Assembly (NCBI GenBank): GCA_018713205.1
Contig: DVFN01000015.1
Location: forward strand, 23,553-87,552
Length of the DNA: 64,000 bases
From: Candidatus Avoscillospira stercorigallinarum
GTDB taxonomy: Bacteria; Bacillota; Clostridia; Oscillospirales; Oscillospiraceae
Direction of reading: 5' to 3'
Under the pieces are notes generated by a model that was not told where the DNA came from, made no database searches, and was given only the letters and a program-made list of their open reading frames with translations. Positions within the stretch are counted from its first letter, which is position 1, and the number at the start of each line of letters is the position of its first letter. This document shows, one piece after another, positions 4,240 to 60,397 of this stretch. Both the position numbers and the translations under genes were made by a program.

Positions 4240-4466
4240 GTAGGGGCCGATGCCCACATCGGCCCGCCAGCCCCGCGTGCAAGGAACCCCGCCGACCGCT
4301 GTGGCCTCGGGTGGTCCGTAGGGCGGCATGCCCACATGCCGCCAAAACCCGGTGCGTCGTGTTCCGGACCCCGGTGGTTCCGGGACCTGGGCACGGGAGG
4401 GCATAAAGCCCTCCCCTACAGACACACCTGCAAGGTTGTCGTAGGGGCGGGGTTCATCCCCGCCCG
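4240..4466. repeat. REP/BIME-like cluster A (4 GTAGGG-hairpin units)
   Basis: Units 4240-4266(+) GTAGGGGCCGATGcccaCATCGGCCCG, 4318-4343(+) GTAGGGCGGCATGcccaCATGCCGCC, 4393-4418(-), 4441-4466(+) GTAGGGGCGGGGttcatCCCCGCCCG. Confidence 0.9.
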
Positions 4467-4523
4467 GACCCCGGTGCGCTTTGTTCCGGGCTCCGGTGGG
4501 TCCGCTCGCCGCGGCAAGTAATC

Positions 4524-4553
4524 AAAAAGCCTGTGCATGGCGCACAGGCTTTT
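4524..4553 (-). terminator. intrinsic terminator downstream of ferredoxin gene
   Basis: AAAAGCCTGTGC-atggc-GCACAGGCTTTT, a 9-bp GC stem extended by A/T pairs, with a T-run on the minus strand 15 nt after the fdx stop. Confidence 0.7.
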
Positions 4554-4567
4554 GGCTGTGTACGAGA

Positions 4568-4738
4568 TTAGCCCTGGGAAATGGCGCTGTTGGGGCACTC
4601 GCCCTCACAGGTACCGCACTCAACGCAAGTGTCGGCGTCGATGACGTACTTGCCGTCGCCCTCGCTGATGGCGCCCACGGGGCAGGCCTCGGCGCAAGCA
4701 CCGCAGCTGACGCACTCGTCAGAGATGACATATGCCAT
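4568..4738 (-). CDS. 2x[4Fe-4S] ferredoxin (56 aa; below ORF-track size cutoff)
   Basis: Hand translation of the minus strand: MAYVISDECVSCGACAEACPVGAISEGDGKYVIDADTCVECGTCEGECPNSAISQG. Two CxxCxxCxxxCP cluster motifs. RBS GGAGGTG 7 nt upstream. Confidence 0.88.
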   Translation of the reverse strand: MAYVISDECVSCGACAEACPVGAISEGDGKYVIDADTCVECGTCEGECPNSAISQG

Positions 4739-4883
4739 GAAGTAACACCTCCAGAATAGATTGCGTCTTTATTCTATCATGTTTTCCCGAAAATGCAAAT
4801 GGAAATATGCGAGGAGGCCGGGGGGCTGGTATATTTTTCTCGGGCAGGGGAAGACTACCAGGAAGGGAGAGGACGGTGAAGTC

Positions 4884-7216: not shown

Positions 7217-7522
7217 GCAGGGGCCGATGCCCACATCGGCCCGCCAGCCTCCGCGCGCAAGGCAGTCCGCCGGCCGCAGGGACCCCGTTTTTGCCGTAGG
7301 GCGGCATGCCCACATGCCGCCAGAACCGGGGAGGATGGGTTGCGGCCTGGGTGGCTGCTGCGGCTGGGCACGGGCGGGCATCAAGCCCGCCCCTACGGAC
7401 CCGCCTGGAAATCCGCCGTAGGGGCGGCCTGTATGGCCGCCCGAAACCAGGTACCGGTGTCCGAGGCAGTAGACCGCACCGACCACCGTCCCTGCCGTAG
7501 GGGCGGATTTTATATCCGCCCG
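7217..7522. repeat. REP/BIME-like cluster B (5 units)
   Basis: Units 7217-7243(+, head GCAGGGG), 7296-7321(+), 7371-7396(-), 7418-7443(+), 7497-7522(+) GTAGGGGCGGATtttatATCCGCCCG. Confidence 0.9.
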
Positions 7523-7538: not shown

Positions 7539-8954
7539 CTACGGCTGGTTCACCACGCCGACGAAGAGGGGCAGGCCCTGGGTGTCGGTCAGGGCGAAGA
7601 GGAAGGGGCGGTCCAGGGTGAAGTCGATCTCGTCCTCCGGCGGGGCTCCGGCTCCGGACATGGCCATTTCAGTATAGGCCGCGGCGGTGACGCCCTCTTC
7701 GTCGATGGCCACCCGGACGCCGTGCTTGGCCTCGGAGAGCCAGAGGTCCTCAGCACTGCCGGAGAGCATCGGAGAGAAGTCGGCCCGGTCGGGGTCAAAG
7801 ACGTCGGTGACGCCCAATGCCTGCAAGCCCTCGCCCAGGTCGATTTGGGACGAAATATCGAACTTCGGCAATGCCAGATTGACGATCAGATATTTCTCCT
7901 GGTCCCATCCCCCGCCGGAGAGCAGGAAGTCCATGGCCTCAGGATCGGCCAGCAGATCCTCGGGGCTGACGCCCTCGTCGGGCAGGAGGAACCACATGGT
8001 CCCGCCGCCGTTGGCGAGAGACAGACCGGCAACGCCGAACTGGTCACCCCAGTAGTAGTGGCCGTCGAAGCTCGTGTGCATAAAGTCCTTGGTCACGTCG
8101 CCAACCGGGCTGTGGAAGGTCTGGGGCGCGGTGTTTTCCTCGGAGAACCGGCTGCTCCACTTGGCCTGGTAGTAGACCGTGGTCACCAGGGCCAGAATGG
8201 CGTCGGGGGACAGCTTCAGGTTCTGGACCTGGTCGGCCAGCAAACCGCCGGTCTGATCGTTGATCCAGCTTTGCAGCGCCTCGGTCATGGCCGGGGAATC
8301 CAGATCTCCCCGGAAGCTGGAGGCGTAGTAGTTCTGCGCCAGGGTGTTCAGCGTATTCTGATTGAAAGGCACGCCGTCCTCCAGCCAGAGGGACCCGGCC
8401 AAAATGCTGTTGGTGGCGCCGTCGTTGGAGTAGTGGTCGTTCCAGAGATCATTGGCCTGGGCTCGCAGGGTCTCGATGGAGCCATGGCCCAGCAGGGTGA
8501 GAATCTGGTCCCGGCTCTCGCCGCCGGTGAGCTCGGCCAGCATGGCCAGAGCCATATAGACGTTCAGCGGCGAATAGGCCCGGTTTTCCGTACCGGCGCC
8601 GCGGAGAAAGGTGGGAATGCTGGCGCGGAAGTAGCCCTCCAGGCCGTCGGCATAGGCCGGGTCCCGGTCCTGGGCGCGCTTGTCCGTCCGCCAGGCGTCG
8701 TATTGGGCTTCAAAGTCGGCGTCCATTTCATTGGGATAGGGAGCCATTTCCGGGTAGCTGGCCTCGGCGACGGCGTAGGCGGTGGTGGAGGCCGGACCGC
8801 CGGGGAAGAAGGTGCCCACGGCAATGGCCGCGGCCAAGACCGCCGCGGCGGCAGCCGCCCACCAGGGCCGCGAGGACCGGCGCTTTTTGTCGCTGCGCAG
8901 CAGCACGTCGTCGTCCACCTGGCCGATACTTTCATAGAGATCCTGTTCATTCAT
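7539..8954 (-). CDS. membrane-anchored serpin (serine protease inhibitor family)
   Basis: 471 aa. Short N-terminal cytoplasmic segment plus TM (WWAAAAAAVLAAAIAVGTFF), then a serpin body. Hinge/RCL is EEGVTAAAYTEMAMSGAG (about 7638-7700) and the C-terminal signature is DRPFLFALTDTQGLPLFVGVVNQP. AAGGAGG RBS. The ATG overlaps the sigma gene stop. Confidence 0.85.
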   Translation of the reverse strand: MNEQDLYESIGQVDDDVLLRSDKKRRSSRPWWAAAAAAVLAAAIAVGTFFPGGPASTTAYAVAEASYPEMAPYPNEMDADFEAQYDAWRTDKRAQDRDPAYADGLEGYFRASIPTFLRGAGTENRAYSPLNVYMALAMLAELTGGESRDQILTLLGHGSIETLRAQANDLWNDHYSNDGATNSILAGSLWLEDGVPFNQNTLNTLAQNYYASSFRGDLDSPAMTEALQSWINDQTGGLLADQVQNLKLSPDAILALVTTVYYQAKWSSRFSEENTAPQTFHSPVGDVTKDFMHTSFDGHYYWGDQFGVAGLSLANGGGTMWFLLPDEGVSPEDLLADPEAMDFLLSGGGWDQEKYLIVNLALPKFDISSQIDLGEGLQALGVTDVFDPDRADFSPMLSGSAEDLWLSEAKHGVRVAIDEEGVTAAAYTEMAMSGAGAPPEDEIDFTLDRPFLFALTDTQGLPLFVGVVNQP

Positions 8955-9630: not shown

Positions 9631-9876
9631 CAGCGAGGGAAGTGAAAGTCTGGGGACGCGCCGTCTCATACGACGCGTCCCTGCAGACTGTCAAAAACCT
9701 CGCTGAAGATGCCTGTAACAGAGCAGCGGGGGAAGTGTGAAGGGGCCCAAGGGCCCCTTCGCGTTCAATCAACACGTATTTTCAAACTTTTTCAAAAGTT
9801 TGAAAATACGCACAGCGTGGCGAAAAGACTTTTTCGACACGCTGTGGAGACGCGCCGTATGATGTGGCGCGTCCCC
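9631..9876. repeat. palindrome-saturated intergenic element (5 consecutive hairpins, inverted 30-nt ends)
   Basis: Hairpins at 9631-9705 (nested CAGCGAGG/AGTCTG/GGGACGCG arms), 9739-9760, 9775-9810 (13-bp perfect stem), 9811-9846 and 9849-9873. 9652-9681 and the reverse complement of 9847-9876 match at 24/30 positions. Confidence 0.7.
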
Positions 9877-15236: not shown

Positions 15237-15566
15237 GGCGGACGCGCCATGCGCGCCCCTACGGCAGGAGGACCCAACGGGCCGTGGTGGGAACCGGCAC
15301 CCGGTTTCGGGCGGATATGCAATCCGCCCCTACGGCAAGATGGCTGACGCGGCGTAGGGGCGCATTGTATATGCGCCCTTGCCCAGCTGCCGGAACCAAT
15401 AGGGCTGCGACAACAGCGCACCAGGTTCCGACGGCATGTGGGCATGCCGCCCTACAAGATTCGACAAAGGCGCGGTGGGAATCGGGGGCCTGCACGGGCG
15501 GCCATAAAGGCCGCCCCTACAGGAAAACCGGAGGCATGGCGTAGGGGCGGATTATCTATCCGCCCG
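15237..15566. repeat. REP/BIME-like cluster C (6 units)
   Basis: Units 15237-15262(-), 15308-15333(-), 15354-15378(+), 15433-15455(-), 15495-15520(-), 15541-15566(+). Confidence 0.9.
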
Positions 15567-19935: not shown

Positions 19936-19962
19936 GTAGGGGCCGATGCCTACATCGGCCCG
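19936..19962 (+). repeat. single REP-like unit (cluster D) between iorB and paaK
   Basis: GTAGGGGCCGATGcctaCATCGGCCCG, followed by a second hairpin ACCCGCC-ggag-GCGGGT (19964-19980) that abuts the iorB stop. Confidence 0.85.
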
Positions 19963-23907: not shown

Positions 23908-23979
23908 CGGGCGGGCATGAAGCCCGCCCCTACGGCCATGTCGAATGCGTGTCGTAGGGGCGGCCTTTATGGCCGCCCG
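23908..23979. repeat. REP/BIME-like cluster E (2 head-to-head units)
   Basis: Units 23908-23933(-) and 23954-23979(+) GTAGGGGCGGCCtttatGGCCGCCCG. The CCCTAC and GTAGGG heads are 20 nt apart. Confidence 0.9.
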
Positions 23980-33930: not shown

Positions 33931-33955
33931 CCCCGGTGGTCCCAGCGGTGCGGTC

Positions 33956-34484
33956 CGGGCGGCCTGTATGGCCGCCCGAGCAGGCCCCCGATTCCCGCCG
34001 TACCCCCGCCGAATCTCGTAGGGCGGCATGCCCACATGCCGCCATGACCGGGTTTCGACGATTGCGAGCCAGGCGATTCCGGCAGCCTGGTTAGGCGGGG
34101 TGTGGGCACCCCGCCCTACGGACCAGGTCAATGGTACGTCGTAGGGGCGGCCTTTATGGCCGCCCGAGGAGACAGGCGATTTTTACCGCACTCCCGCCGA
34201 ATCTCGTAGGGCGGCATGCCCACATGCCGCCATGACCGGGTTTCGACGATTGCAAGCCTGGCAATTCCGGCAGCCTGGTTAGGCGGGGTGTGGGCACCCC
34301 GCCCTACGGACCAGGTCGAAAGCGCGGCGTAGGGGCGGCCTTTATGGCCGCCCGAGGAGACTGGCGATTTTTACCGCACTCCCGCCGAATCTCGTAGGGC
34401 GGCATGCCCACATGCCGCCATGACCGGGCTTCGACGACCGCAAGTCTGTCCGAAGGCGCCGTAGGGGCGGCTATCAGCCGCCCG
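33956..34484. repeat. REP/BIME-like cluster F (9 units; contains 188-bp tandem duplication)
   Basis: Units 33956-33978 (degenerate head), 34018-34043(+), 34094-34119(-), 34141-34166(+), 34206-34231(+), 34282-34307(-), 34329-34354(+), 34394-34419(+), 34461-34484(+). Confidence 0.92.
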
Positions 34485-39882: not shown

Positions 39883-39920
39883 GCTACCACCGCCTTGCGG
39901 AAAAATAGAGAATGGAAAAC

Positions 39921-40287
39921 AGGCGGCAAATCCGCCCCTACATGCACACGCTGGCGTTTCCCACTGTAGGGGCGCATTTTATATGCGCCCGGACCGCACC
40001 GCCGGAACCACCGGGCAAGCAGTCAACGCGGCCCTGACCGGGCGGCTGATAGCCGCCCCTACGGCGCATGTTCGACCTGGTCCGTAGGGCGGGGTGCCCA
40101 CACCCCGCCAAACCAGGCCGCCGGAACTACCAGGCTAGCGGTCAACGAGACCCGGTCGTGGCGGCATGTGGGCATGCCGCCCTACAGTGTTCGGCGGGAA
40201 TCAGGGGCGCATTCGGGCGGATATATAATCCGCCCCTACATGTGCCCGCTGCCGTTTCCCGTCGTAGGGGCGGCTATCAGCCGCCCG
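39921..40287. repeat. REP/BIME-like cluster G (7 units)
   Basis: Units 39921-39941(-), 39966-39991(+), 40039-40062(-), 40084-40109(+), 40160-40185(-), 40214-40239(-), 40264-40287(+). Confidence 0.9.
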
Positions 40288-45833: not shown

Positions 45834-46136
45834 GTAGGGCGGCATGCCCACATGCCGCCATGGCTGAGCTGCGATGATTGCAAGTCTGGTGGTCCCGTTG
45901 GCTCGGTTTGGCGGGGTGTGGGCACCCCGCCCTACGGACCAGGTTGATGGCACGCCGTAGGGGCGGCTATTAGCCGCCCGCCCAGGCCCGCGATTCCCGC
46001 TGCGCCCGCGCCGAACGCCGTAGGGCCCCGCAGACCGTAGGCCTGGTGATCCCGGTGGTGCGGCACGGGCGGCTGCTAGCCGCCCCTACGACGGAAACCG
46101 GCATACACCTGTAGGGGCGGATTGTATATCCGCCCG
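45834..46136. repeat. REP/BIME-like cluster H (5 clear + 2 degenerate units)
   Basis: Units 45834-45859(+), 45910-45935(-), 45957-45980(+), 46066-46089(-), 46111-46136(+). Degenerate heads occur near 46019 and 46165. The linker CCCGCGATTCCCGCC..CGCCGAACGCC is repeated at 45800 and 45987. Confidence 0.9.
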
Positions 46137-46266
46137 AAAACGCCCGCGATTCCCGCCAAACCCCGTAGGGCGGCGGGGTTCTGGAATCGGAGAAGCACAA
46201 ACAAGCCCCGAGGGAAAATTCCCCCGGGGTTTTGATACAAATTCGATACAGCCGAACCGTAGAATA

Positions 46267-47433: not shown

Positions 47434-47461
47434 TTGACACAACTGTATGAGCAGCTATAAT
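47434..47461 (+). promoter_or_regulatory. near-consensus sigma-A promoter for ABC transporter operon
   Basis: TTGACA (47434-47439) - 16 nt - TATAAT (47456-47461). AGGAGG RBS at 47484-47489 and ATG at 47496. Confidence 0.65.
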
Positions 47462-47495
47462 ACACTTGTGAGTATAGTACATCAGGAGGTTCCTT

Positions 47496-49898: not shown

Positions 49899-49907
49899 TC
49901 GCGTGCC

Positions 49908-49936
49908 GCGGGGACGGCCATGGTGGCCGCCCCCGC
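49908..49936 (+). promoter_or_regulatory. intercistronic stem-loop between SBP and permease genes
   Basis: GCGGGGACGGCCA-tgg-TGGCCGCCCCCGC (13 bp, one mismatch), 10 nt after the SBP stop. Typical position for an mRNA-stabilising or attenuating hairpin in ABC operons. Confidence 0.5.
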
Positions 49937-50006
49937 CCGGCCGTGCCGCCCGACGGGCTGAACGTTTCTCTCCGCCGCCCACCCCGCATAGAATCGAGCT
50001 GAACCT

Positions 50007-50939
50007 ATGGAAAAAACCAAATCCAAACCTGCCCGCCGGATCCGGCCGCTGCGCCGGGCCTTTGACCGGAGCAACGATGCCATCCGCAATGTGATGCACG
50101 CCTCCTGCTTCCTGGGCCCCAGCTTTCTCGGCGTGCTGGTGTTCTTTATTGTGCCCTTCGGCGTGGTGGTGTACTATTCCTTTATCAAGGGCCCCATGGA
50201 CGCCAGCTTTGCCGGCCTCGCCAACTATGAAAGCGTCCTCACCAACGGCGCCTTTCACACTGCGGTGAAAAACACCCTGGTGTTCACCGGAATCGCGGTG
50301 CCCCTGGCCGTGGTGCTGTCTCTGGTGCTGGCGCTGATGCTGGAGTGCCGGATTCCGCTGAAATCCCAGTTCCGCACCTTCTTTTTGAGCCCCATGGTGG
50401 TGCCGATTGCCTCCATCATCCTGGTCTGGCAGGTGCTGTTCCACTCCAACGGCGTGGTCAATGAATTCCTCGCCAATTTCGGGGTGGAGAAGATCGACTG
50501 GCTCAAATCGGACTTCTGTAAGGTGGTCATCGTAGTCCTCTTCGAGTGGAAAAACCTGGGCTATTTTATGATCCTCTTTATGGCGGCCCTGAACAATATC
50601 CCCCGGACGCTCCTGGAGGTGGCCGACGTGGAGGGCGCTTCGGCGCTCCACAAGTTCTTCAAGATCAAGCTGCGGTACCTGTCGCCGACGGTGCTGTTTG
50701 TGACCATTCTGGCCATTATCAACTCCTTCAAGGTATTCCGGGAGATCTACCTGCTCACCGGCGATTACCCCTATACGGGGCTGTATATGATGCAGCATTT
50801 TATGAACAACATGTTCAATAAAAACCTGGATTACCAGCGGCTTTCCGCCGCGGCGGTGATTCTGGCCCTGGGCATGGTGGTGCTGATCGCCATTCTCTTC
50901 GCGGTGGAGAACTGGTTCGGAAAGGATGTGGAAGGATGA
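50007..50939 (+). CDS. carbohydrate ABC transporter permease (MalF/UgpA-like)
   Basis: 310 aa. Polytopic, with an EAA-type loop (EVADVEGASALHKFFKIKLRYL). Confidence 0.88.
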   Translation: MEKTKSKPARRIRPLRRAFDRSNDAIRNVMHASCFLGPSFLGVLVFFIVPFGVVVYYSFIKGPMDASFAGLANYESVLTNGAFHTAVKNTLVFTGIAVPLAVVLSLVLALMLECRIPLKSQFRTFFLSPMVVPIASIILVWQVLFHSNGVVNEFLANFGVEKIDWLKSDFCKVVIVVLFEWKNLGYFMILFMAALNNIPRTLLEVADVEGASALHKFFKIKLRYLSPTVLFVTILAIINSFKVFREIYLLTGDYPYTGLYMMQHFMNNMFNKNLDYQRLSAAAVILALGMVVLIAILFAVENWFGKDVEG

Positions 50940-51817
50940 AAAAGCCCCGGCTCTTTGGCCGCACGGCCCTGACCATCCTGGCGGCGGTGTTCGCCCTGCT
51001 GTTCCTGCTGCCCACGGTCCTGACCATTACCAACTCCTTTATGACCCAGAGCGAAATCACGGCCAACTACGGCCAGGTCTTCGCCACGGTCAAGCAGGGG
51101 ACCAGCTATATCGCCGATACCATCAACCTGAAATTTATCCCCGACAAGGTGAGCTTTTCCCAGTATATTACCGTCCTGTTCCGGAGCCCGGACTATCTCT
51201 TGAAGTTCTGGAATTCGGTGATCCTGGTGGTGCCCATCGTGATTTTGCAGCTGATTATTGCCTCGGTGGCGGCCTACGGCTTCACCCGCTGGCGCGGCAA
51301 GGTCAGCGACGTGATTTTCTTTTCCTACGTCATTCTGATGCTGATGCCCTACCAGGTGACCCTGGTGCCCAATTACCTGGTCAGCGATTGGCTGGGCATC
51401 CTCAATACCCGTTGGGCCATCATCCTGCCCGGCGCCTTTGCGCCCTTCTCGGTGTTTTTGCTCACCAAGTTTATGCGGCGCATCCCCAATTCCCTGATCG
51501 AGGCCGCTAAGCTGGACGGCTCCAGCGAGTTCCAGATTTTTAAGAATATCTGCCTGCCCCAGTGCCGCAGCGCCCTCTATTCCATCGCCATTCTGGTCTT
51601 CATCGACTACTGGAACATGGTCGAGCAGCCGCTGATCCTGCTGCCCGACGCCTCCCAGCAGCCCCTGTCGGTGTACCTGTCCACGATCAACTCCGGCGAG
51701 ATCGGCATTGCCTTTGCCATCGCCGTGATCTATATGATCCCCGGCCTGCTGCTGTTCCTCCACGGCGAGGAGTACCTGGTCGAGGGCATCGCCCACTCCG
51801 GCTCGGTCAAGGGATAA
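50936..51817 (+). CDS. carbohydrate ABC transporter permease (MalG/UgpE-like)
   Basis: 293 aa. EAA loop (IEAAKLDGSSEFQIFKNICLPQ). ATGA overlap with the upstream permease. Confidence 0.88.
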   Translation: MKKPRLFGRTALTILAAVFALLFLLPTVLTITNSFMTQSEITANYGQVFATVKQGTSYIADTINLKFIPDKVSFSQYITVLFRSPDYLLKFWNSVILVVPIVILQLIIASVAAYGFTRWRGKVSDVIFFSYVILMLMPYQVTLVPNYLVSDWLGILNTRWAIILPGAFAPFSVFLLTKFMRRIPNSLIEAAKLDGSSEFQIFKNICLPQCRSALYSIAILVFIDYWNMVEQPLILLPDASQQPLSVYLSTINSGEIGIAFAIAVIYMIPGLLLFLHGEEYLVEGIAHSGSVKG

Positions 51818-51835
51818 GCGCCCGCGCCCATGCGA

Positions 51836-51910
51836 GTGAAATCGCCGGTGGCGGTGAAATATGGCTGCGCCAAGTGAAATGTCCCTGCGGGACGTGAAAT
51901 GCCTCCGGCG
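51836..51910 (+). repeat. tandem GTGAAAT + mini-hairpin array (4 units, ~20-bp period)
   Basis: GTGAAAT at 51836, 51854, 51874 and 51894. The first three copies are each followed by a different 4-5 bp mini-palindrome (CGCC-ggt-GGCG, TGGC-tgc-GCCA, GTCCC-tgc-GGGAC). The fourth is followed only by a weak 3-bp one (GCC-tcc-GGC). Confidence 0.75.
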
Positions 51911-51963
51911 TGTTGCCCGGGACCCGGTCGCGATTCCCGCCAGGCCCCATTGGTTCCACCCTC

Positions 51964-52172
51964 GTAGGGGCGGCTATCAGCCGCCCGGACCGCGTTGCCG
52001 AAACCGCCAAGCCTGCGATTTGCGCACCACGGCAGCGGCGGCATGTGGGCATGCCGCCCTACGGTGTTCGGCGAACGTGCGGTGGAACTCACAGCCTTAC
52101 TCGGGCGGCTGCTAGCCGCCCCTACGACCAGCCGTTGATCCGTACCGTAGGGCGGGGTGCCCACACCCCGCC
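51964..52172. repeat. REP/BIME-like cluster I (4 units)
   Basis: Units 51964-51987(+), 52037-52062(-), 52102-52125(-), 52147-52172(+). Confidence 0.9.
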
Positions 52173-52284
52173 GGGGCAGCTTCCATTGCCCGGACAAACC
52201 ATTTACCCCGCGTCCCCCCGATGGGGCCGCACCAATCACCCTGCGCCCCAGGGCGCCAATCCACAGAGAGAGGTATGATACCCT

Positions 52285-54252
52285 ATGCAAAAGACAAAAC
52301 GGCGGGAATGGGTCAAGACCTTCGCCATTATCTTTCTGGTCATTCTGCTGATCCTGACCTTTTTCTCCCAGACGATTATGAACCGCTCTCTGCCGGAGGT
52401 GGCGGCCCAGTACGTGGAGTCCGGCACCATCAACGCCAAGATCCGCGGTAGCGGCGCGGTGTCCGCCGACGAGACCTATGACGTGACCATCAGCCAGACC
52501 CGGAAGATCCGCAGCGTCCTGGTGAAGGTGGGCGACACGGTCAACGCCGGCGACGTCCTCTTTATGCTGGAGCCCGCCGACAGCGAGGAGCTCAAGACGG
52601 CCCAGAAGACCCTCAGCGACCTGGAGCTGGCCTACCAGAAGAGCCTCATCGAGGCCGGCAACGCCAGCTCCACCGAAAACCGGGAGGTCCAAAAGCTCCG
52701 CGACGCCTATAACGAGGCGCTGGCAACTTTGCGGCTCTATAGCAGCGCTGACCCCAGCCAGATCACTGCCGCATTGGAACAGGCGAAGGTTGAATTGACT
52801 TCGTTGCAGCGCGCTTCGGCAGATGCTGAATCCGCATTGGCGGAGGTCAACACGGAACTGACGGAGGCACAGCAGGCGGCCACAGACGCAAGCTCTGCCG
52901 TGACAACGTTGCAGACGGAAATCAGCGCGCTGGATACGCAGCTGGAAACATTGATTGTTGCCAGTCGGGATAAAACACGTGCAATTGAAGATGCACAGAA
53001 GAAACTGAATGAAGCATATGAAACTAAAAATCGCGATTGGGCGATTCACCAGCTGCGATATGAGGAATTGCAGGGCTATGCCACGGAAAATGGAGTGGTG
53101 AATTATACGCTTATGGCCGCCTATGCAGCGGATACGTCTTTCCTGCAAAGATCGAAGCCCGATATTGAATTTACGGAAGATGATTTGAAAGCACTTGCAG
53201 ACGCCTACGATACCATTTCCAAGGACGACGCGACCATTGCCGAACTGGAAACGACTCTGCGTCAACTCCAGCAAGACGCCAATGACCCGGTCACTGGTGC
53301 GACAATGGCACAGCAAATTCAGGACCTGGAAAACGAAAAGACATCAAAAGAGAGAGAGCTGCGTACAAAACAGTATGAAGCCGATGCTGCCGCTGTTCAG
53401 GTCGAGCAGGTCAAGAGCCGTGTGGAGCGCTATCAGGAGGACGCTACCGCCGCAAAACGCACTGCCGAAGACAAGCAGGCCGAGGTCGATAAGCTGACCG
53501 CCGCCTCCACCGCCGCTGAAACCCTCAAAACGGCCCAGACGGCGCTGGAGGACAAGGTCTTCGAGACCAGCCTGGGGGACTCCGCCAGCCTGGATCTGCA
53601 GAACTCCAAGAAGGCCATTGAGGAGCAGCAGAAGGTGGTGGACGAGCTGATGGCCCAGGCCGACGGCCAGGAGGTCACGGCCAATGTCTCCGGCAAGGTC
53701 ACGGCCATCAACGTCACCGCGGGCAACTCCGCCGGAGCCGATACCGCGCTGGCCACGCTGACCGTGGTGGACCGGGGCTATACCGTCAAGATTGCCGTCA
53801 CCGCCGACCAGGCCAAGCAGGTCACCATCGGCGACACCGCCACCATCACCAACTATTATAACGGCGACATCACCGCCACCCTGGAGAACATCGCCAACGA
53901 TCCCCAGAACCCCGGCAAGGGCAAGCTGCTGGTGTTCCGCCTCTCCGGCGAGGGCGTGGAGGCCGGGTCCAATATCACCCTCTCCATCGGCCAGCGCAGC
54001 GCTACCTATGACACGCTGGTGCCCAACAGCGCCCTTCGCAATGACGCCAACGGCGACTTCGTCCTGGTGGTCACCGCCAAGAATACGCCTCTGGGCAACC
54101 GCTACACCGCCACCCGCGTCGGCGTGACGGTCCTGGCCAAGGACGACACCAAGAGCGCCGTCACCGGCCTGAGCAGCGGCGACTTTGTTATCACCACCTC
54201 CACCGCGCCCATTGAGGCCGGTACCCAGGTCAGGCTGGTGGACAACGGATGA
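52285..54252 (+). CDS. HlyD/membrane-fusion-family adaptor with unusually long coiled coil
   Basis: 655 aa. N-terminal TM, lipoyl-like half (VKVGDTVNAGDVLFMLEP), about 330 aa of heptad-rich A/E/Q/L sequence, the second lipoyl half (VTANVSGKVTAINV), and a beta-barrel C-terminus. Confidence 0.8.
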   Translation: MQKTKRREWVKTFAIIFLVILLILTFFSQTIMNRSLPEVAAQYVESGTINAKIRGSGAVSADETYDVTISQTRKIRSVLVKVGDTVNAGDVLFMLEPADSEELKTAQKTLSDLELAYQKSLIEAGNASSTENREVQKLRDAYNEALATLRLYSSADPSQITAALEQAKVELTSLQRASADAESALAEVNTELTEAQQAATDASSAVTTLQTEISALDTQLETLIVASRDKTRAIEDAQKKLNEAYETKNRDWAIHQLRYEELQGYATENGVVNYTLMAAYAADTSFLQRSKPDIEFTEDDLKALADAYDTISKDDATIAELETTLRQLQQDANDPVTGATMAQQIQDLENEKTSKERELRTKQYEADAAAVQVEQVKSRVERYQEDATAAKRTAEDKQAEVDKLTAASTAAETLKTAQTALEDKVFETSLGDSASLDLQNSKKAIEEQQKVVDELMAQADGQEVTANVSGKVTAINVTAGNSAGADTALATLTVVDRGYTVKIAVTADQAKQVTIGDTATITNYYNGDITATLENIANDPQNPGKGKLLVFRLSGEGVEAGSNITLSIGQRSATYDTLVPNSALRNDANGDFVLVVTAKNTPLGNRYTATRVGVTVLAKDDTKSAVTGLSSGDFVITTSTAPIEAGTQVRLVDNG

Positions 54253-55307
54253 AGATACACGTTGACCGCCGCCGCTGGAATCTGGCCATTGTCAACCTGG
54301 TACTGGTGATTCTGGTGCTGATCTGCCTGGGAATCTTTGCCGCCGTGGCCGGGACCCTGGACTCCATTCACGCGGCCGACCGGTTCCGGGGGGAGAGCGA
54401 TATGCGCTTTGCCCAAATTGCCTGCTTCCTGCCCGAGGACATCGGAAAGACCGAGTCGGATATCCAGATGTTCCGCGAAACGCTGTCGCAGAAATTCGTG
54501 GACGCCTCCATCGAAGCGCCCGAGGGCGGCAAGCTCTACATAGACGCCTACAGCGGCTCCGCCCGCTTCTCAGTCACCGGCGACCATGGCGCCGCCGAGG
54601 TCAAGGCCATCGGCGTAGGGGGGAACTTCTTCCACTTCCATCCCCTGCGCCTCCGGTCCGGCAGTTATATCGCCGAGGATGACTTCATGCTGGACCGGGT
54701 GGTCCTGGACGAGACCCTGGCCTGGCAGCTCTTCGGCGGCTTCGACGTGGCCGGGCTCACCATCCAGATCAACGGCCAGCCCTTCCAGGTGGCCGGCGTC
54801 GTCCGCCGGGAGAGCGACTTTGCCTCCAAAGAGGCGTATCTCGACGGCGCCAGCCTCTTCCTCTCCTACAGCGCCATGGCGGCGCTGGACGAGAACAGTA
54901 AAATCACCTGCTATGAAATTGTCCTGCCGGACCCCATCACCGGCTTCGGCCTGAGCACCGTCTCCGAGAACTTCGATACCAAGCTGGGCGACGTGGTGGA
55001 AAACAGCCGCCGCTATTCCCTGGAGAATCTGTTCAGCGTCATCGGCGACTTCGGCAAGCGCTCCATGCGCAACAACGGCGTGATATATCCCTATTGGGAG
55101 AATGCCGTCCGTCTCACCGAGGACTATCTGGCGCTGCTGCTGGTGCTGATGCTGCTCTTCGGCCTGTGCCCGGCGGTGACGCTGGCGGTGCTGGCCATCC
55201 GGGCCGTCATCAAGACCTGGCGGACGCTGAAAAAGCAGGTCCCGGCCCGGCTGGACCAGGCGCGGGAGCGCCACCGCGAAAAAATCTATCAGAAGGGCGG
55301 GAAATAG
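54249..55307 (+). CDS. MacB-periplasmic-core-domain (MacB_PCD) membrane protein lacking FtsX bundle
   Basis: 352 aa. N-terminal TM, a MacB_PCD-like ectodomain (GGNFFHFHPLRLRSGSYI...VVLDETLAWQLFG...ING.PF.VAGVV), and one C-terminal TM. ATGA overlap with the adaptor gene. Confidence 0.7.
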   Translation: MKIHVDRRRWNLAIVNLVLVILVLICLGIFAAVAGTLDSIHAADRFRGESDMRFAQIACFLPEDIGKTESDIQMFRETLSQKFVDASIEAPEGGKLYIDAYSGSARFSVTGDHGAAEVKAIGVGGNFFHFHPLRLRSGSYIAEDDFMLDRVVLDETLAWQLFGGFDVAGLTIQINGQPFQVAGVVRRESDFASKEAYLDGASLFLSYSAMAALDENSKITCYEIVLPDPITGFGLSTVSENFDTKLGDVVENSRRYSLENLFSVIGDFGKRSMRNNGVIYPYWENAVRLTEDYLALLLVLMLLFGLCPAVTLAVLAIRAVIKTWRTLKKQVPARLDQARERHREKIYQKGGK

Positions 55308-55310
55308 CCC

Positions 55311-56498
55311 GTGGCAGAGATCACGCTCACCCATGTGAAAAAAATATATGATAAATCCGTGGTGGCAGTCCAGGACTTCTGCATGGAGATTCAGGACAAG
55401 GAGTTCATCGTCCTGGTTGGCCCCTCGGGCTGCGGCAAGTCCACCACCCTGCGGATGATCGCCGGCCTGGAGGAAATCTCCGCCGGAGAAATCGCCATCG
55501 GCGGCAAGGTGGTCAACCGGGTTCCGCCAAAGGACCGGGATATCGCCATGGTCTTCCAGGACTACGCCCTCTATCCCCATATGACGGTTTACGACAATAT
55601 TGCCTATGGCCTGAAGCTGCGCAAATTCCCCCGGCGGGTCATCGACCAGAAGGTCCGCGAGGCCGCCGAGATTTTGGATATCACGGATCTTTTGAAGCGC
55701 AAGCCCAAGGCCCTCTCCGGCGGCCAGCGCCAGCGCGTCGCCATCGGCCGGGCCATTGTCCGCAGCCCCAAGGCGTTCCTGATGGACGAGCCCCTCTCCA
55801 ACCTGGACGCCAAGCTCCGCAACCAGATGCGGACGGAGATCATCAAGCTCCGCCAGCGGATTCAGACCACCTTTGTCTACGTGACCCACGACCAGACCGA
55901 GGCCATGACCCTGGGCGACCGCATTGTGATTATGAAGGAGGGCTATGTCCAGCAGATCGGCACGCCGCGGCAGGTCTTCCACGATCCCAATAATCTGTTT
56001 GTGGCGGGCTTTATCGGTACGCCGCAGATGAACTTCTTCCACGGGGAGCTCCACCGGGAGGGCGAGACGTACTTCCTGGAGCTGGGCGGCACGCGGCTGG
56101 AGATTGCCGAGGAGAAGCAGCAGCACCTGCGGCAGTACGATGTCCCGGCCCAGCCGGTGGTAGCGGGAATCCGCCCCGAGCATGTCCTCCTGACCGAGGG
56201 CGAGGGCTTTTCTGGTCAAGTGGACGTCATTGAGATGATGGGCTCCAATACCCATCTCCACGTCCGCTTCGGCGACGAGGAGTGCGTCATCGTGGTCCCC
56301 GACGGCGATGAGCCGGTCCGGGAATTCCAGCATGGCGAGACCGTCCAATTTATGTTCCACGCCGACCGAATCCACCTGTTCAGCCGCGAAACCGAGCAGA
56401 ACCTGGAGCACGCCCCGGCGGCCCCCGCCGCAGAGGAACCGGCCCCAGCTACAGAAGAACCGGCTCCGGCAGCCGCCGAAGCCCCCAGCGAACCCTGA
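55311..56498 (+). CDS. sugar-type ABC transporter ATP-binding protein (MalK/UgpC/MsmX-like)
   Basis: 395 aa with a GTG start. Walker A GPSGCGKST, signature LSGGQRQRVAIGRA, Walker B FLMDEPLS, a TOBE-like C-domain, and a P/A/E-rich 34-aa tail. Confidence 0.9.
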   Translation: MAEITLTHVKKIYDKSVVAVQDFCMEIQDKEFIVLVGPSGCGKSTTLRMIAGLEEISAGEIAIGGKVVNRVPPKDRDIAMVFQDYALYPHMTVYDNIAYGLKLRKFPRRVIDQKVREAAEILDITDLLKRKPKALSGGQRQRVAIGRAIVRSPKAFLMDEPLSNLDAKLRNQMRTEIIKLRQRIQTTFVYVTHDQTEAMTLGDRIVIMKEGYVQQIGTPRQVFHDPNNLFVAGFIGTPQMNFFHGELHREGETYFLELGGTRLEIAEEKQQHLRQYDVPAQPVVAGIRPEHVLLTEGEGFSGQVDVIEMMGSNTHLHVRFGDEECVIVVPDGDEPVREFQHGETVQFMFHADRIHLFSRETEQNLEHAPAAPAAEEPAPATEEPAPAAAEAPSEP

Positions 56499-56502
56499 GA
56501 CC

Positions 56503-56536
56503 CCGCCCCCGGCCCAGCCGCGGGGCGGATTTTCTA
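56503..56536 (+). terminator. possible terminator after ATPase gene
   Basis: CCGCCCC-12 nt-GGGGCGG followed by ATTTTCT. Overlaps a degenerate REP-like unit. Confidence 0.4.
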
Positions 56537-56692
56537 TGCCCACCAGCAAACCCGCCCCTACGCCGCGTTTTCGACCTGGCTCGTAGGGCGGGGTGCCCAC
56601 ACCCCGCCAAACCGCATCGCCGGGACCACCAGGCCCGCAATTCACGCACCCCGGCCATCAACCCCTTCGTAGGGGCGGCTATCAGCCGCCCG
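56519..56692. repeat. REP/BIME-like cluster J (2 clear units + 1 chimeric)
   Basis: Chimeric/degenerate unit 56519-56560(-), then 56583-56608(+) GTAGGGCGGGGTGcccaCACCCCGCC and 56669-56692(+) GTAGGGGCGGCTatcAGCCGCCCG. Confidence 0.85.
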
Positions 56693-57558: not shown

Positions 57559-57762
57559 ATGAATCTTCGTATTCGGGACCTGCGGGAGGATGCCGACCTG
57601 ACCCAGAAGGACGTGGCGGACTACCTGCTCTGTGACCAGTCTCTCTATTCCAAATACGAACGCGGGGAACGCCCGCTGCCGCTGGAGCTGGCAGTCCGTC
57701 TGGCCGACTATTACCATGTCACGCTGGACTACCTGGTGGGCCGCTCCGCCTCCAAAATCTGA
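57559..57762 (+). CDS. XRE-family helix-turn-helix transcriptional regulator
   Basis: 67 aa: MNLRIRDLREDADLTQKDVADYLLCDQSLYSKYERGERPLPLELAVRLADYYHVTLDYLVG, a canonical Cro/C1-type HTH. Confidence 0.9.
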   Translation: MNLRIRDLREDADLTQKDVADYLLCDQSLYSKYERGERPLPLELAVRLADYYHVTLDYLVGRSASKI

Positions 57763-57790
57763 CACCCCCGGCAGGGGGTGTTTTGTTTTT
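57763..57790 (+). terminator. intrinsic terminator after XRE gene
   Basis: CACCCCC-ggca-GGGGGTG followed by TTTTGTTTTT, starting at the stop codon. Confidence 0.8.
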
Positions 57791-57839: not shown

Positions 57840-57925
57840 CGGGCGGCCATAAAGGCCGCCCCTACGCCGTGCTTTCGACCTGGTCCGAAGGGCGGGGTGC
57901 CGGAACTGCCAGGCCCGCAATCCAC
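57840..57925. repeat. REP/BIME-like cluster K (1 intact + 1 internally deleted unit)
   Basis: Unit 57840-57865(-). At 57886 GAAGGGCGGGGTGC joins directly to linker sequence CGGAACTGCCAGGCCCGCAAT, a truncated version of the 40084-40135 arrangement. Confidence 0.8.
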
Positions 57926-57956
57926 GCACCCCAGCCATGGCGGCATTTGATGCAAC

Positions 57957-57998
57957 GGAAAACGCACACCCCAATCGCATGATGGGGTGTGCGTTTTG
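57957..57998 (-). terminator. bidirectional intrinsic terminator after ppk1
   Basis: ACGCACACCCCA-atcgcatga-TGGGGTGTGCGT (12-bp stem) with T-runs on both strands. It ends 2 nt before the ppk1 stop codon. Confidence 0.75.
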
Positions 57999-57999
57999 C

Positions 58000-60105
58000 T
58001 TATTTCTTCTTATGCAGGCTGTCCTTGACCTTTTCCCAGAGGGTGCGTTTGCGCTCCACGGGGACGCTGGCGCGGACGGCGTCGATCATTTGCTGCTTCT
58101 GGCAGTCGATGGCGGCGTTGCCGCCGGAGACGTGGCTGTAGGACCCGTCGGGCTGGAGGTCCCGGGCACGGACGTTGTCCTGGAGGCACAGCTCCAGAAT
58201 ATGGTGGATTCTGGCCTTGATCCGTTGATCGTAAATCGGACAGGCGACCTCCACCCGGCGCTCGGTATTCCGGGTCATAAAGTCCGCCGAGGCGATGTAC
58301 ATTTTCTGATTGGGGCCTTCGCCGAAGCAGTAGACCCGGGAGTGCTCCAGATACCGGCCGACAATGCTGCGGATGTGCAGGTTTTCGGTCTCGCCGGGGA
58401 TGTTGGGCAGAATGCAGCAGATGCCTCGGACGATCATGGTGATCTGCACCCCGGCTTGGGAGGCTTCGCGGAGCTTGGCCATCAGATCCATATCGGTGAC
58501 GGAGTTGAGCTTGAACAGCATCCGACCCTTGGGGCCCTTGGCGATTTCGCCGTCCATCAGCTGCAGCAGCGTGGATTTGAGGCCCACCGGGGCCACCAGC
58601 AGGTGCTGATATTCGCCCTGGAGGTTGCCGATCATCATGTTCTTAAAGAATTCGTTGGCATCCTCGCCGATGGACTGGTCGGCGGTCATCAGCGAGAGGT
58701 CCGTGTACATGGCGGCGGTCTTCTCGTTGTAGTTGCCGGTGCCGATCTGGGTGATATAGCGAATGGCGCCGTGCTCCCGCCGGGTGATGAGGCAGATCTT
58801 CGAGTGGACCTTATAGCCCTCGAAGCCGTAAATAATGGTACAGCCCGCCTCTTCCAGCCGCTCGGACCAGTCGATGTTGTTCTGCTCATCGAACCGGGCG
58901 CGGAGCTCGATGAGCACGGTGACGTCCTTGCCGTTTTCGGCGGCGGTACAGAGGTAGTCCACCAGCTTGGCCTTGCTGGCCAGCCGGTAGATGGTGATTT
59001 TGATGGCCACCACGGAAGGATCGTTGGCCGCCTCCTTGAGAAGCTGCAGGAAGGGGTTCATGGACTCATAGGGATAGGAGAGCAAAACGTCCTCCCGCTG
59101 GACCAGCCGGAGCATTTTCTCCTGCGCCGGAATAAAGCCGGGGGTCTGGGGCGTGAAGGCCGGATAGGAGAGGAGGCTCCGCCGGGCCTCGGGCAGCTTG
59201 CCGGGGATGTCATAGGCAAAGCTCAGCCGGAAGGGGGCCTTGGAAATATAGATCTGATGGTGCTCCAGGGACATCTTCGTCGAGAGATAGGCCTCCAGCT
59301 CGCCGGAGATGGTGCTGCTCAGCTCCAGCCGCACCGGGGCCAGACGGCGGCGCTTGCCCAGGACCTTCTGCATCTTCTCGCGGAAGTCGCCGAAGTAGTC
59401 TACGCTCTCCTCGTCGGTGGTGATATCGGCGTTGCGGGTCAGGCACAGCTGCACCCGCTCGACGCAGTTGTAGCCGGGGAACAGGTGCTCCAGATACTCC
59501 TGGACGATGTCGGCCACGGTAAGGAAGCGGATGGTGTTGCCGGGCAGGTAGAGCACGTCGGGCAGCACGGCCGGGATGGGCACGCAGCCGAAGGTCTCGT
59601 TGCCCTTATATTTGAGCCGGGCCACCACATGGGGGACTTTGTTCTGCAAATGGGGGAAGGGATGATGGGTGTCCACAATCTGAGGCGAGAGCACCGGCGC
59701 GATGGACTGCTTGAAGTACTGCTTGACGTACTTGGTCTCGTCGGGGGTCAGATCCTTGAACCGGAGATAGTGGATGCCGTGGACCTGGAGCTGGGAGGTG
59801 ATATCGAAGAAGCACCGCTCTCGCTTGGCGTAGAGGGGGCGGACGGCCCGGTAGATGGCGTCCAGCTGCTGCTGCGGTGTCATGGCAGACCGGCTGTCCA
59901 GGTTCTCGGGATTGACCAGGGACAGGTCGTAGAGACTGCCGACGCGGATCATAAAGAATTCATCGAGATTGCTGGTAAAGATGGCGACGAACTTCAGCCG
60001 CTCCAGCAGCGGCACGGTGGCGTCCATGGCCTCCTCCAGCACCCGGTCATTGAAGCGGAGCCAGCTGAGCTCCCGGTTTTGCAGATAGGGAAGTTTGTCT
60101 GACAT
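58000..60105 (-). CDS. ppk1: polyphosphate kinase 1
   Basis: Start trimmed to ATG 60105 (MSDKLPYLQNRELSWLRFNDRVLEEA). Two PLD-like HKD-type domains (YKVHSK; YLEHSRV) and a PPK1 middle domain. Confidence 0.93.
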   Translation of the reverse strand: MSDKLPYLQNRELSWLRFNDRVLEEAMDATVPLLERLKFVAIFTSNLDEFFMIRVGSLYDLSLVNPENLDSRSAMTPQQQLDAIYRAVRPLYAKRERCFFDITSQLQVHGIHYLRFKDLTPDETKYVKQYFKQSIAPVLSPQIVDTHHPFPHLQNKVPHVVARLKYKGNETFGCVPIPAVLPDVLYLPGNTIRFLTVADIVQEYLEHLFPGYNCVERVQLCLTRNADITTDEESVDYFGDFREKMQKVLGKRRRLAPVRLELSSTISGELEAYLSTKMSLEHHQIYISKAPFRLSFAYDIPGKLPEARRSLLSYPAFTPQTPGFIPAQEKMLRLVQREDVLLSYPYESMNPFLQLLKEAANDPSVVAIKITIYRLASKAKLVDYLCTAAENGKDVTVLIELRARFDEQNNIDWSERLEEAGCTIIYGFEGYKVHSKICLITRREHGAIRYITQIGTGNYNEKTAAMYTDLSLMTADQSIGEDANEFFKNMMIGNLQGEYQHLLVAPVGLKSTLLQLMDGEIAKGPKGRMLFKLNSVTDMDLMAKLREASQAGVQITMIVRGICCILPNIPGETENLHIRSIVGRYLEHSRVYCFGEGPNQKMYIASADFMTRNTERRVEVACPIYDQRIKARIHHILELCLQDNVRARDLQPDGSYSHVSGGNAAIDCQKQQMIDAVRASVPVERKRTLWEKVKDSLHKKK

Positions 60106-60217
60106 GGTGAACCCTCGTTTCAGCGCCCGCGGGCGCAATATAGTATTATCATACGGTGCATTCCGGGATTTTGCAAGTAAATTCTGCAAAGGCATGGATT
60201 CGGCCCCCTGATACGCC

Positions 60218-60397
60218 GTAGGGGCCGATGCCCACATCGGCCCGCTGGGTTCCGGGTCTGAGGCAGTACGCCGGCCGCACCGGCTATCAATCCAATTGTA
60301 GGGGCGGATTATATATCCGCCCGGACCCGGGTGCGTTCTGTTCCGGGCCCGGTGGTTGCGGTGGATGGGCAGGGCGCATATTACAATGCGCCCCTAC
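60218..60397. repeat. REP/BIME-like cluster L (3 units)
   Basis: Units 60218-60244(+), 60298-60323(+) GTAGGGGCGGATtatatATCCGCCCG, 60372-60397(-). Confidence 0.9.

Follow-up and report, generated by a model that had tools for sequence, protein, structure and literature searches.

The locus and its intergenic repeats

The stretch of DNA analysed here, referred to as the window, comprises 64,000 nucleotides of Candidatus Avoscillospira stercorigallinarum (Oscillospirales; Oscillospiraceae), positions 23,553 to 87,552 of contig DVFN01000015.1. The DNA between its genes carries a family of short GTAG-headed palindromic units whose anatomy is that of repetitive extragenic palindromes (REPs), bacterial interspersed mosaic elements (BIMEs) and REPINs (inverted REP doublets). 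The window has a GC content of 64% and holds housekeeping and sporulation genes typical of a spore-forming Firmicute, including those for thioredoxin reductase, ClpC, a serpin, an S-layer homology (SLH) protein, AddAB, FtsZ/FtsQ, PFK, Ppk, ABC transporters and SpoIIIAA-AE. The Pfam gene map of the window shows neither cas genes nor any gene for a transposase or integrase. Together with the adjoining 9.9 kb on the left, 74 kb of this genome were examined.

The hexamer GTAGGG occurs 63 times in the window, against 25.6 ± 5.9 in shuffled sequences. Fifty of these heads lie in the non-coding DNA (about 7.2 kb) and 13–14 in the coding DNA (56.8 kb), that is, about 6.8 per kb versus 0.25 per kb, an enrichment of about 27-fold. 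The test is not circular, since the sites were selected on the head alone. No REP lies inside a supported gene of the window; the unit at 60218 overlaps only an over-long call of the ppk open reading frame (ORF), and the Pfam domain of ppk begins at residue 53. The initial annotation had described about 50 copies restricted to intergenic DNA in 12 clusters, and all 12 clusters were recovered where it had placed them. Its estimate that the repeats fill about 6% of the window was too high, as the cluster spans sum to about 2.8 kb (4.4%) and the units alone to about 1.9%. Intact units number 46 in the window and 13 in the adjoining 9.9 kb, a density of about 0.8 units per kb over 74 kb that is a local and not a genome-wide figure. 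The clusters are listed below, each unit being given by its coordinates, strand, 5′ arm and loop, the last two separated by a point.

Cluster 1, 4240..4465, four units between the start of a methyltransferase gene (4219) and the end of a small ferredoxin gene (4568): 4240-4265 (+) GTAG.GGGCCGATG.CCCA; 4318-4343 (+) GGCGGCATG.CCCA; 4395-4419 (-) GGGAGGGC.TTTAT; 4441-4465 (+) GGGCGGGG.TTCAT
Cluster 2, 7217..7521, five units between the convergent clpC and serpin genes: 7217-7242 (+) with a GCAG head, GGGCCGATG.CCCA; 7296-7321 (+) GGCGGCATG.CCCA; 7372-7396 (-) GGGCGGGC.TTGAT; 7418-7442 (+) GGGCGGCC.TGTAT; 7497-7521 (+) GGGCGGAT.TTTAT
Cluster 3, 15240..15565, six units between the start of the SLH-protein gene and the end of a Ser/Thr kinase gene: 15240-15262 (-) GGGCGCGC.ATG with one mismatch; 15309-15333 (-) GGGCGGAT.TGCAT; 15354-15378 (+) GGGCGCAT.TGTAT; 15430-15455 (-) GGCGGCATG.CCCA with a basal mismatch; 15496-15520 (-) GGGCGGCC.TTTAT; 15541-15565 (+) GGGCGGAT.TATCT
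Cluster 4, 19936..19961 (+), a single REP between two minus-strand genes: GTAG.GGGCCGATG.CCTA.CATCGGCCC
Cluster 5, 23909..23978, a heads-inward pair with a CTAC-to-GTAG linker of 20 nt: 23909-23933 (-) GGGCGGGC.TTCAT; 23954-23978 (+) GGGCGGCC.TTTAT
Cluster 6, 33953..34483, eight intact units and one with a degenerate head, between the start of addB and the end of ftsZ: 33953-33977 (+) with a GTCC head, GGGCGGCC.TGTAT; 34018, 34206 and 34394 (+) GGCGGCATG.CCCA; 34119 and 34307 (-) GGCGGGGTG.CCCA; 34141 and 34329 (+) GGGCGGCC.TTTAT; 34461-34483 (+) GGGCGGCT.ATC
Cluster 7, 39915..40286, six intact units and one truncated, in the divergent promoter region of response-regulator and aminotransferase genes: 39915-39941 (-) truncated; 39966-39990 (+) GGGCGCAT.TTTAT; 40040-40062 (-) GGGCGGCT.ATC; 40084-40109 (+) GGCGGGGTG.CCCA; 40160-40185 (-) GGCGGCATG.CCCA; 40215-40239 (-) GGGCGGAT.TATAT; 40264-40286 (+) GGGCGGCT.ATC
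Cluster 8, 45834..46191, five intact units and two head-only remnants (46020, 46165), between convergent genes: 45834-45859 (+) GGCGGCATG.CCCA; 45910-45935 (-) GGCGGGGTG.CCCA; 45957-45979 (+) GGGCGGCT.ATT; 46067-46089 (-) GGGCGGCT.AGC; 46111-46135 (+) GGGCGGAT.TGTAT
Cluster 9, 51964..52172, four units, with an ABC permease gene and a Gut-1 RNA upstream: 51964-51986 (+) GGGCGGCT.ATC; 52037-52062 (-) GGCGGCATG.CCCA; 52103-52125 (-) GGGCGGCT.AGC; 52147-52172 (+) GGCGGGGTG.CCCA
Cluster 10, 56535..56691, two intact units and one degenerate: 56535-56561 (-) degenerate; 56583-56608 (+) GGCGGGGTG.CCCA; 56669-56691 (+) GGGCGGCT.ATC
Cluster 11, 57841..57915, one intact unit and one fragment: 57841-57865 (-) GGGCGGCC.TTTAT; 57889-57915, a GAAG-headed fragment of GGCGGGGTG
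Cluster 12, 60218..60397, three units in the divergent region between ppk and spoIIIAA: 60218-60243 (+) GGGCCGATG.CCCA; 60298-60322 (+) GGGCGGAT.TATAT; 60372-60397 (-) GGGCGCAT.TGTAAT

The clusters are found in tandem, convergent and divergent intergenic regions alike. Two small genes lie within DNA that was at first counted as intergenic, a ferredoxin gene at 4568-4738 (-) and a Zn-ribbon gene at 2456-2650 (-), and because of the former the context of cluster 1 is tandem rather than divergent. The ferredoxin gene (56 amino acids) has its own bidirectional terminator at 4520-4555; it and the Zn-ribbon gene (64 amino acids) had both been missed by a length-filtered ORF map. The units are split between 28 on the plus and 18 on the minus strand. 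The GC-skew profile of the window has no clear replication direction, and neither dnaA nor origin features were seen in the window. Genes from 2680 to 39882 lie nearly all on the minus strand and those from 40539 to 56498 on the plus strand; the plus-strand GC skew is positive over 4–32 kb despite the minus-strand genes there.

Hairpin anatomy and stem covariation

A perfect stem of at least 7 bp directly follows the head at 43 of 49 intergenic GTAGGG sites and at essentially none of the genic ones. When G-T pairs are allowed, all eight positions of the core are paired at 46 of 50 intergenic heads. In the other direction, of 48 perfect 8-bp hairpins in intergenic DNA, 44 bear GTAG and a further one GCAG. 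The stems are 8–9 bp long, GC-rich and fully paired, with loops of 3–5 nt; the GC-rich hairpin after the head had been correctly recognised by the initial annotation, which gave slightly different dimensions (arms of 7–9 bp, loops of 4–6 nt). GTAG stands directly at the foot of the stem in 46 of 50 intergenic sites. This agrees with the published definition of a REP, namely GT[AG]G placed 0–2 nt 5′ of a hairpin whose basal stem of 7–20 bp is fully paired and whose loop has 2–5 nt (RNAMotif; PMC6006769).

Two architectures dominate. One is GTAG-GGCGGNNTG-CCCA-CANNCCGCC, with GGGCCGATG as a relative; the other is GTAG-GGGCGGNN-loop-NNCCGCCC, in which the loop is, for example, ATC or TTTAT. Eleven stem versions exist, among them all eight that had been noticed before, and both arms always change together. 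At least two Watson-Crick pair types are seen at six of the eight stem positions, and shuffling the 3′ arms among the variants leaves 5.76 ± 0.34 pairs versus the 8 observed. The covariation was counted on the 8-bp core in Python; a gapless MAFFT alignment of 50 units left the three length classes out of register. The earlier proposal of selection on structure holds for both the hairpin and the GTAG head, given the compensatory stems, the invariant head and a conservation of 99% in the REP versus 62–73% in the spacers. About six copies are degenerate or truncated (15262, 39941, 46020, 46165, 56561 and the headless copy at 33953).

A run of TTTT within 12 nt was found at none of the 46 units. 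Genuine terminators lie beside the REP clusters, for instance the separate hairpins with T-runs at 57762-57790 and 57968-57997 near cluster 11. At the Rfam gathering thresholds the REPs match no family, and the sole match in the window is the Gut-1 RNA (RF01706) at 51834-51905 (+), about 60 nt upstream of cluster 9, which scores 59.3 bits versus a gathering threshold of 50.

Composites

The orientation of the units alternates at fixed distances. Heads-outward doublets span about 96–101 bp, and the linkers of heads-inward pairs measure about 20–24 nt. In cluster 1, for instance, the pair 4318/4419 faces outward over 101 bp, and the pair 4419/4441 faces inward across 21 nt. These arrangements are combined into composites of about 150–190 bp, consisting of a REP, a 50-nt spacer, an inverted REP, a linker and a further REP, which are homologous among nine unrelated intergenic regions. 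The first REP of the composites (REP-A) is 99% conserved, compared with 62–73% for the spacers and flanks; eight of its nine window copies are identical and the ninth (15455) differs by one base. Such homology across unrelated intergenic regions is, as judged from the sequences, a sign of copying rather than of origin in place. The doublet at 34014-34123 folds as one long hairpin (dG -38.8 kcal/mol, z -5.9), and at 34018-34483 a three-REP unit is repeated in tandem with a period of 188 bp.

Variation between strains

Over the parts compared, the window is 100% identical to contig k141_91164 of ENA ERZ27240132. Two other strains are 97–97.5% identical, and nearly all internal indels of at least 15 bp are confined to REP clusters or to a 165-bp element with terminal inverted repeats (this leaves aside small gaps in L212 at 8785-8867, adjacent to the REP at 8790). 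The clpC-serpin spacer, which holds cluster 2, measures 128, 328 or 550 bp in three strains, and a REP cluster between rplT and a HAD gene is replaced by unrelated DNA in one of them. The ftsZ-addB spacer varies from 263 to 908 bp among nine contigs whose ftsZ is at least 99% identical, with 1, 2, 3 or 11 REPs where the window has 8. The orthologous basal REP of this spacer differs between strains by a compensatory stem change. The comparison of strains for insertion polymorphism, suggested by the initial annotation, thus finds that they differ mainly at REP clusters, the chief origin of structural divergence from strain to strain.

REP clusters also break short-read assemblies, as contigs end or are misjoined inside them. 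Contigs L001 and L002 both end inside the ftsZ-addB cluster. In L218, a tenth contig with ftsZ at least 99% identical, from the sample of the window (ENA ERZ27240132 k141_89639), ftsZ and five REPs are joined to yajC-tgt at 3575-4040, where the window and nine other strains have addB. This junction is probably a chimera that assembly produced by way of the REP cluster, the alternative being a genuine rearrangement at that place.

The 165-bp element is unrelated to the REPs. It occurs at 9686-9846 (+) of the window, at 3938-4101 of L212 (same genome, left of the window) and at about 17181-17343 of L211, and strains differ in whether they have it. Its composition is AT-richer, its terminal inverted repeats (CAGACTGTCAAAAAC...GTTTTTCGACACGCTG) are imperfect, and palindromes lie in its interior. 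On both sides of each copy stands a whole hairpin, 22–35 bp long, as a direct duplication; in strain L211 the duplicated hairpin is REP-A. From its sequence it looks like a MITE (miniature inverted-repeat transposable element) that targets palindromes and leaves an unusually long target duplication.

Spread of the REP across genomes

The exact pattern GTAGGGCGGNNTGCCCACANNCCGCC was scanned for in the GTDB collection with one genome per species. It is present in at least 101 stretches from at least 59 species-level genomes, which by their labels are nearly all Oscillospirales. Carriers among the matches listed are Oscillospiraceae, Acutalibacteraceae, Vescimonas, Oscillibacter, Gemmiger and 'Monoglobus', and include the cultured Gemmiger formicilis ATCC 27749. 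The GC content of the REP-bearing stretches ranges from 34 to 68%. Identical copies have unrelated flanks, and many of them belong to doublets of two different stem types. Some REP-bearing stretches come from metagenome-assembled genomes (MAGs) labelled outside the Oscillospirales (L034 and L066, Bacteroidaceae; L030, Leptolinea; L079, Lachnospiraceae). With a GC content of 62–64% and the REP types seen elsewhere, those of the 'Bacteroidaceae' MAG look like mis-binned contigs rather than signs of a broader range of hosts.

RAYT-like genes and their internal hairpins

Searches of the window for a REP-associated tyrosine transposase (RAYT) or other Y1 transposase gene by phmmer with E. coli RayT, by jackhmmer and with a hidden Markov model (HMM) of the family were all empty, as the initial annotation had stated. 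Among the 101 REP-bearing GTDB stretches, one (L076, Acutalibacteraceae) contains a RAYT-like gene. It encodes a HuH-Y1 protein of 165 amino acids, and the REP occurs twice in frame within the gene, in inverted orientation: GTAGGGCGGGATGCCCACATCCCGCC is read as VGRDAHIPP and its inverted partner as GGMRASRPT. Homologues of 160–180 amino acids abound in metagenomes and Clostridia MAGs, with 1,445, 5,487 and 1,187 matches in separate protein searches; they form 1,743 clusters at 50% identity with E ≤ 1e-30 and 18,530 at 1e-10. The analogy to RAYT systems had been made to depend on whether related genomes hold a Y1/RAYT-like gene, and such a gene is present in L076 and has thousands of homologues. 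The RAYT loci consist of one gene wedged between housekeeping genes, in a context that is repeated in many samples.

Three subfamilies are distinguished by the peptides encoded by their in-frame hairpins, VGRDAHIPP/GGMRASRPT, VGADAHIGP/GPMWASAPT and VGAAISRP/GRLIAAPT, and correspond in that order to the window types GGCGGNNTG.CCCW, GGGCCGATG.CCCA and GGGCGGCT.ATC. Two of these types have exact matches, GGGCCGATG.CCCA in L131, L196 and L197 and GGGCGGCT.ATC in L178 and L201-L210; the hairpins are inside the gene at all of these loci except L178, where they flank it. The GGCGGNNTG.CCCW type is matched at the level of architecture, as GGCGG(G)NNTG.CCCW with stems GAT or GGT, in L076, L106, L114 and L116. 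The peptides that would be expected of a RAYT of the present genome (VGRHAHMPP, VGRGAHTPP, GGMWACRPT and GGVWAPRPT) were not found in the protein searches, and the RAYTs with identical REP variants came from other samples.

Of the 88 RAYT loci examined, 76 have GTAG hairpins either in the gene or no more than 350 bp away from it. Both in-gene REPs are present in 45 loci, where they lie about 196 bp from each other on either side of the HuH motif, and a single one in 15. The remaining 16 have REPs only within 350 bp of the gene, which is the classical REPtron arrangement. There are 29 distinct stems over the 88 loci, and the two copies of a locus agree at 0.945, versus 0.604 ± 0.021 with shuffled partners. 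In low-GC RAYT genes the GC content of the REP is 71%, against 40% for the gene. In all 107 peptides of the form VGRx..yPP, x and y (D-I, G-T, A-S, L-K or V-N) can be encoded by reverse-complementary codons, which argues for selection on the DNA hairpin inside the RAYT gene. Some of the proteins contain three to nine tandem in-frame copies of a REP-coded peptide (P0389, P0042, P0043, P0208, P0222 and P0225), for instance nine copies of GRQ(I/V)AAPT in P0389 and four of VGRGALTPP in P0042. The REPs therefore multiply inside the transposase gene without breaking its frame. A derivation of the doublet spacers from the interior of RAYT genes was also considered and rejected, as blastn-short of the REP-masked window clusters against the 88 genes matched only residual REPs.

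Identity of the RAYT-like protein

In a profile search the best PDB sequence match is E. coli TnpA-REP (4ER8, E 4e-9), and IS200/IS605 transposases (ISDra2) follow at about 1e-3. The AlphaFold model of P0437 (mean confidence, pLDDT, 83) likewise has 4ER8 as its best Foldseek match, with template-modelling (TM) scores of 0.57/0.62 and a root-mean-square deviation (rmsd) of 3.1 Å; the rmsd to IS608 and ISDra2 TnpA is 8–14 Å. In the model, the peptides encoded by the REPs lie in loops of low confidence. According to the profile alignment, the invariant H..H of IMPNHIH and the invariant Y and N of YIxxNP align to H59/H61, Y115 and N119 of 4ER8. The motif IWQ...IIRNE has an invariant Q, with W and R conserved to at least 90%, and the three align to W94, Q95 and R104. 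In E. coli TnpA-REP these last three residues contact GTAG, and Tyr115 is the catalytic residue, with Asn119 (PMC6006769). The sole NCBIfam match is REP_Tyr_transpos (NF047646), and Pfam Y1_Tnp (PF01797) matches 44 of 53 family members at E ≤ 0.01. We conclude from the alignments and the predicted fold that this is a family of divergent RAYTs, and not an equivalog of the proteobacterial one.

Interpretation and alternatives

The units are probably GTAG-tagged REP elements cognate to RAYTs, assembled in BIME- or REPIN-like composites, dispersed by copying and then remodelled locally. A unit in single-stranded form would fold to a GC-rich hairpin with its 5′ GTAG unpaired. This is the form of substrate that RAYT (TnpA-REP), a HuH-Y1 nuclease, would handle by binding the hairpin, reading GTAG, and nicking and rejoining single strands. 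What the data show is the repeat family with its covarying hairpins, its confinement to non-coding DNA, its distribution over the Oscillospirales, the physical link of identical REPs to RAYT-like genes in relatives, the motifs and fold of the encoded proteins, and the polymorphism of strains. We infer that this genome has a RAYT elsewhere, that it mobilises the units and that it does so by such a single-strand mechanism. Probably several paralogues, one per REP type, would have copied doublets and composites to many intergenic sites. Tandem duplication and recombination could then enlarge and shrink the clusters, the 188-bp three-REP unit being an example. The resident hairpins may also affect transcripts or DNA topology in a secondary manner.

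Several observations weigh against this interpretation. There is no RAYT gene in the window or in the adjoining 9.9 kb, and the 5-nt-loop variants of the window (e.g., TTTAT) have no exact RAYT-associated counterpart in the sample of loci examined. The family members score 48–69 bits to NF047646, below the 80-bit equivalog cut-off, and the proteins tabulated score 18.9–21.7 bits to PF01797, below its 23-bit threshold. High-GC Oscillospiraceae loci (L201-L208, GC 66.6%; L210, GC 66.2%) contain two in-gene GGGCGGCT.ATC REPs and no intergenic REP in flanks of 11–14 kb; some genomes thus have the RAYT and its in-gene pair without local proliferation. The ends of the strain indels are not at GTAG, and one indel is bounded by a 5–6 bp direct repeat, CCGCA, so that cluster growth looks like recombination or slippage. 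The largest cluster, moreover, grows by 188-bp tandem units. Indel ends and tandem units fit slippage or recombination as well as they fit transposition. The dissemination of REPs is itself described in the literature as poorly understood to date (PMC8266576).

Alternatively, the hairpins may be host-selected RNA or DNA elements, such as stabilisers of mRNA 3′ ends, attenuators, or sites for gyrase or nucleoid proteins, that are kept and multiplied by their function. Such selection would agree with the conservation of the REP far above its neighbouring spacers and with the compensatory stems, including the one that distinguishes strains at an orthologous site. Clusters are often located downstream of genes, and roles of this kind are documented for proteobacterial REPs. 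Nevertheless, the strands alternate, so half of the units would be transcribed as the complement; units also occupy divergent promoter regions (clusters 7 and 12), and they lack a T-tract while true terminators stand alongside. A change from 1 to 11 copies at one site in near-identical strains is hard to square with a tuned function, and an RNA function leaves unexplained both the invariant unpaired GTAG and the identical hairpins in RAYT genes. We regard this explanation as unlikely; a host function is, however, compatible with dispersal by a RAYT.

Another possibility, which we hold to be quite unlikely, is that the units are relics whose cognate RAYT was lost or never present, and whose copies persist and vary through recombination, slippage and gene conversion. 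REP-A has stayed near-identical while the adjacent spacers are at 62–73%, which implies continuing constraint or recent copying; composites are present at a dozen unlinked sites, and RAYTs with the REP variants of the window are common in relatives. The shift of cluster size by whole 188-bp units and by microhomology-bounded indels is in keeping with relics, as is the lack of a RAYT in 74 kb of this genome, yet the part inspected is about 2% of a typical genome. It is hardly credible that the repeats belong to another class, for all that they are short, palindromic and regularly spaced within clusters. A CRISPR-like array was rejected on account of the alternating orientation, the mixed variants, the homology of spacers between clusters and the lack of cas genes in the window. 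MITEs of DDE transposons were rejected as well, there being no integrase or DDE transposase in the window and no target-site duplication flanking the doublets. Intrinsic terminators were dismissed for the absence of a T-run in all 46 units, and Rfam offers no match other than the unrelated Gut-1 RNA.

Returning to the RAYT-based interpretation, a further step can be proposed tentatively. The RAYT frame in Oscillospirales may carry a master pair of inverted, REPIN-like REPs that brackets the HuH segment, so that enzyme and hairpin are inherited and co-evolve as one unit. The in-gene hairpins would then have a function, either in giving rise to new REPINs or as a site of autoregulation, rather than being insertions that are simply tolerated. 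If true, this would explain the persistence of one REP sequence across families and over 34–68% GC, the concerted evolution of the two in-gene copies, and the range from seed-only genomes (L201, L210) to proliferated ones such as the present genome.

The system is widespread and locally very dense in the Oscillospirales, which are dominant and mostly uncultured gut bacteria. The thousands of RAYT genes with their own in-frame hairpins, which co-vary from one lineage to the next, could serve to read the recognition code between RAYT and REP and to choose enzyme-substrate pairs.

Comparison with known systems

GTAG REPs and RAYTs are familiar from Proteobacteria, to which work on REP-RAYT systems has, to our knowledge, been almost wholly confined. 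A literature search turned up no account of REP or REPIN populations in Clostridia. The initial annotation had likewise known of no well-described family in this class, which is consistent with three surveys. Di Nocera 2013 covered more than 80 species of 8 phyla in a text that makes no mention of Firmicutes. According to Bertels 2017, RAYTs of Group 1 are 'also found in the Clostridia', and their 16-mer association is no more than weak. Quentin 2018 reported in-frame REP insertions in tnpA-REP genes of subclass 2.4, mainly of Cyanobacteria and Bacteroidetes (PMC6006769).

The closest resemblance in anatomy is to the REP/BIME and TnpA-REP (RayT, 4ER8) system of E. coli. In both, a GC-rich hairpin follows a 5′ GTAG, several stem types reside together, and clusters are of alternating orientation with fixed linker lengths; both also have a small single-domain HuH-Y1 enzyme in which the GTAG-contacting and catalytic residues are conserved. 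However, the hosts here are anaerobic spore-forming Clostridia, the hairpins are short and perfect (8–9 bp, loop 3–5 nt) instead of bulged, and the REPs usually lie inside the RAYT frame rather than flanking the gene. Proteobacterial REPs are said to be species-specific (PMC6006769), whereas the REP sequence here is common to several families of 34–68% GC; the proteins, unlike proteobacterial RAYTs, fall below the NCBIfam equivalog cut-off.

Similarly, the inverted REP doublets that fold as one long hairpin recall the REPIN-RAYT systems of Pseudomonas (Bertels and Rainey). The GTAG families of Di Nocera 2013 also have sub-families with complementary stems, and dimers with heads outward or inward, 20–100 bp apart. 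In both of these systems a genome has several REP families, each tied to its own RAYT, and several stem types are likewise found here. The differences lie in the phylum, in the higher local density (about 0.8 units per kb over 74 kb, a local figure), in the tandem amplification of three-REP composites and in the embedding of REPs in the RAYT gene.

In this last respect the family is like subclass 2.4 of TnpA-REP (Quentin 2018, PMC6006769), which has in-gene REPs and a hairpin foot of three G-C pairs after GT[AG]G. Compared by description, it differs from that subclass in having a second conserved in-gene site, upstream of HuH, with the two copies inverted and evolving in concert. With IS200/IS605 elements (TnpA Y1 of IS608 and ISDra2) the family shares the HuH-Y1 fold and, by analogy, may share the way in which sub-terminal hairpins of single-stranded DNA are recognised together with a short guide sequence. 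Unlike in those elements, the transposase gene is single at its locus and tightly placed between housekeeping genes without tnpB, the hairpins are inverted and internal rather than direct and terminal, and the predicted fold is nearer to 4ER8 than to IS608 or ISDra2. Compared with the known REP-RAYT systems, the notable traits of the present one are the conserved inverted REP pair in the RAYT frame, the conservation of the REP across families and the high local density.

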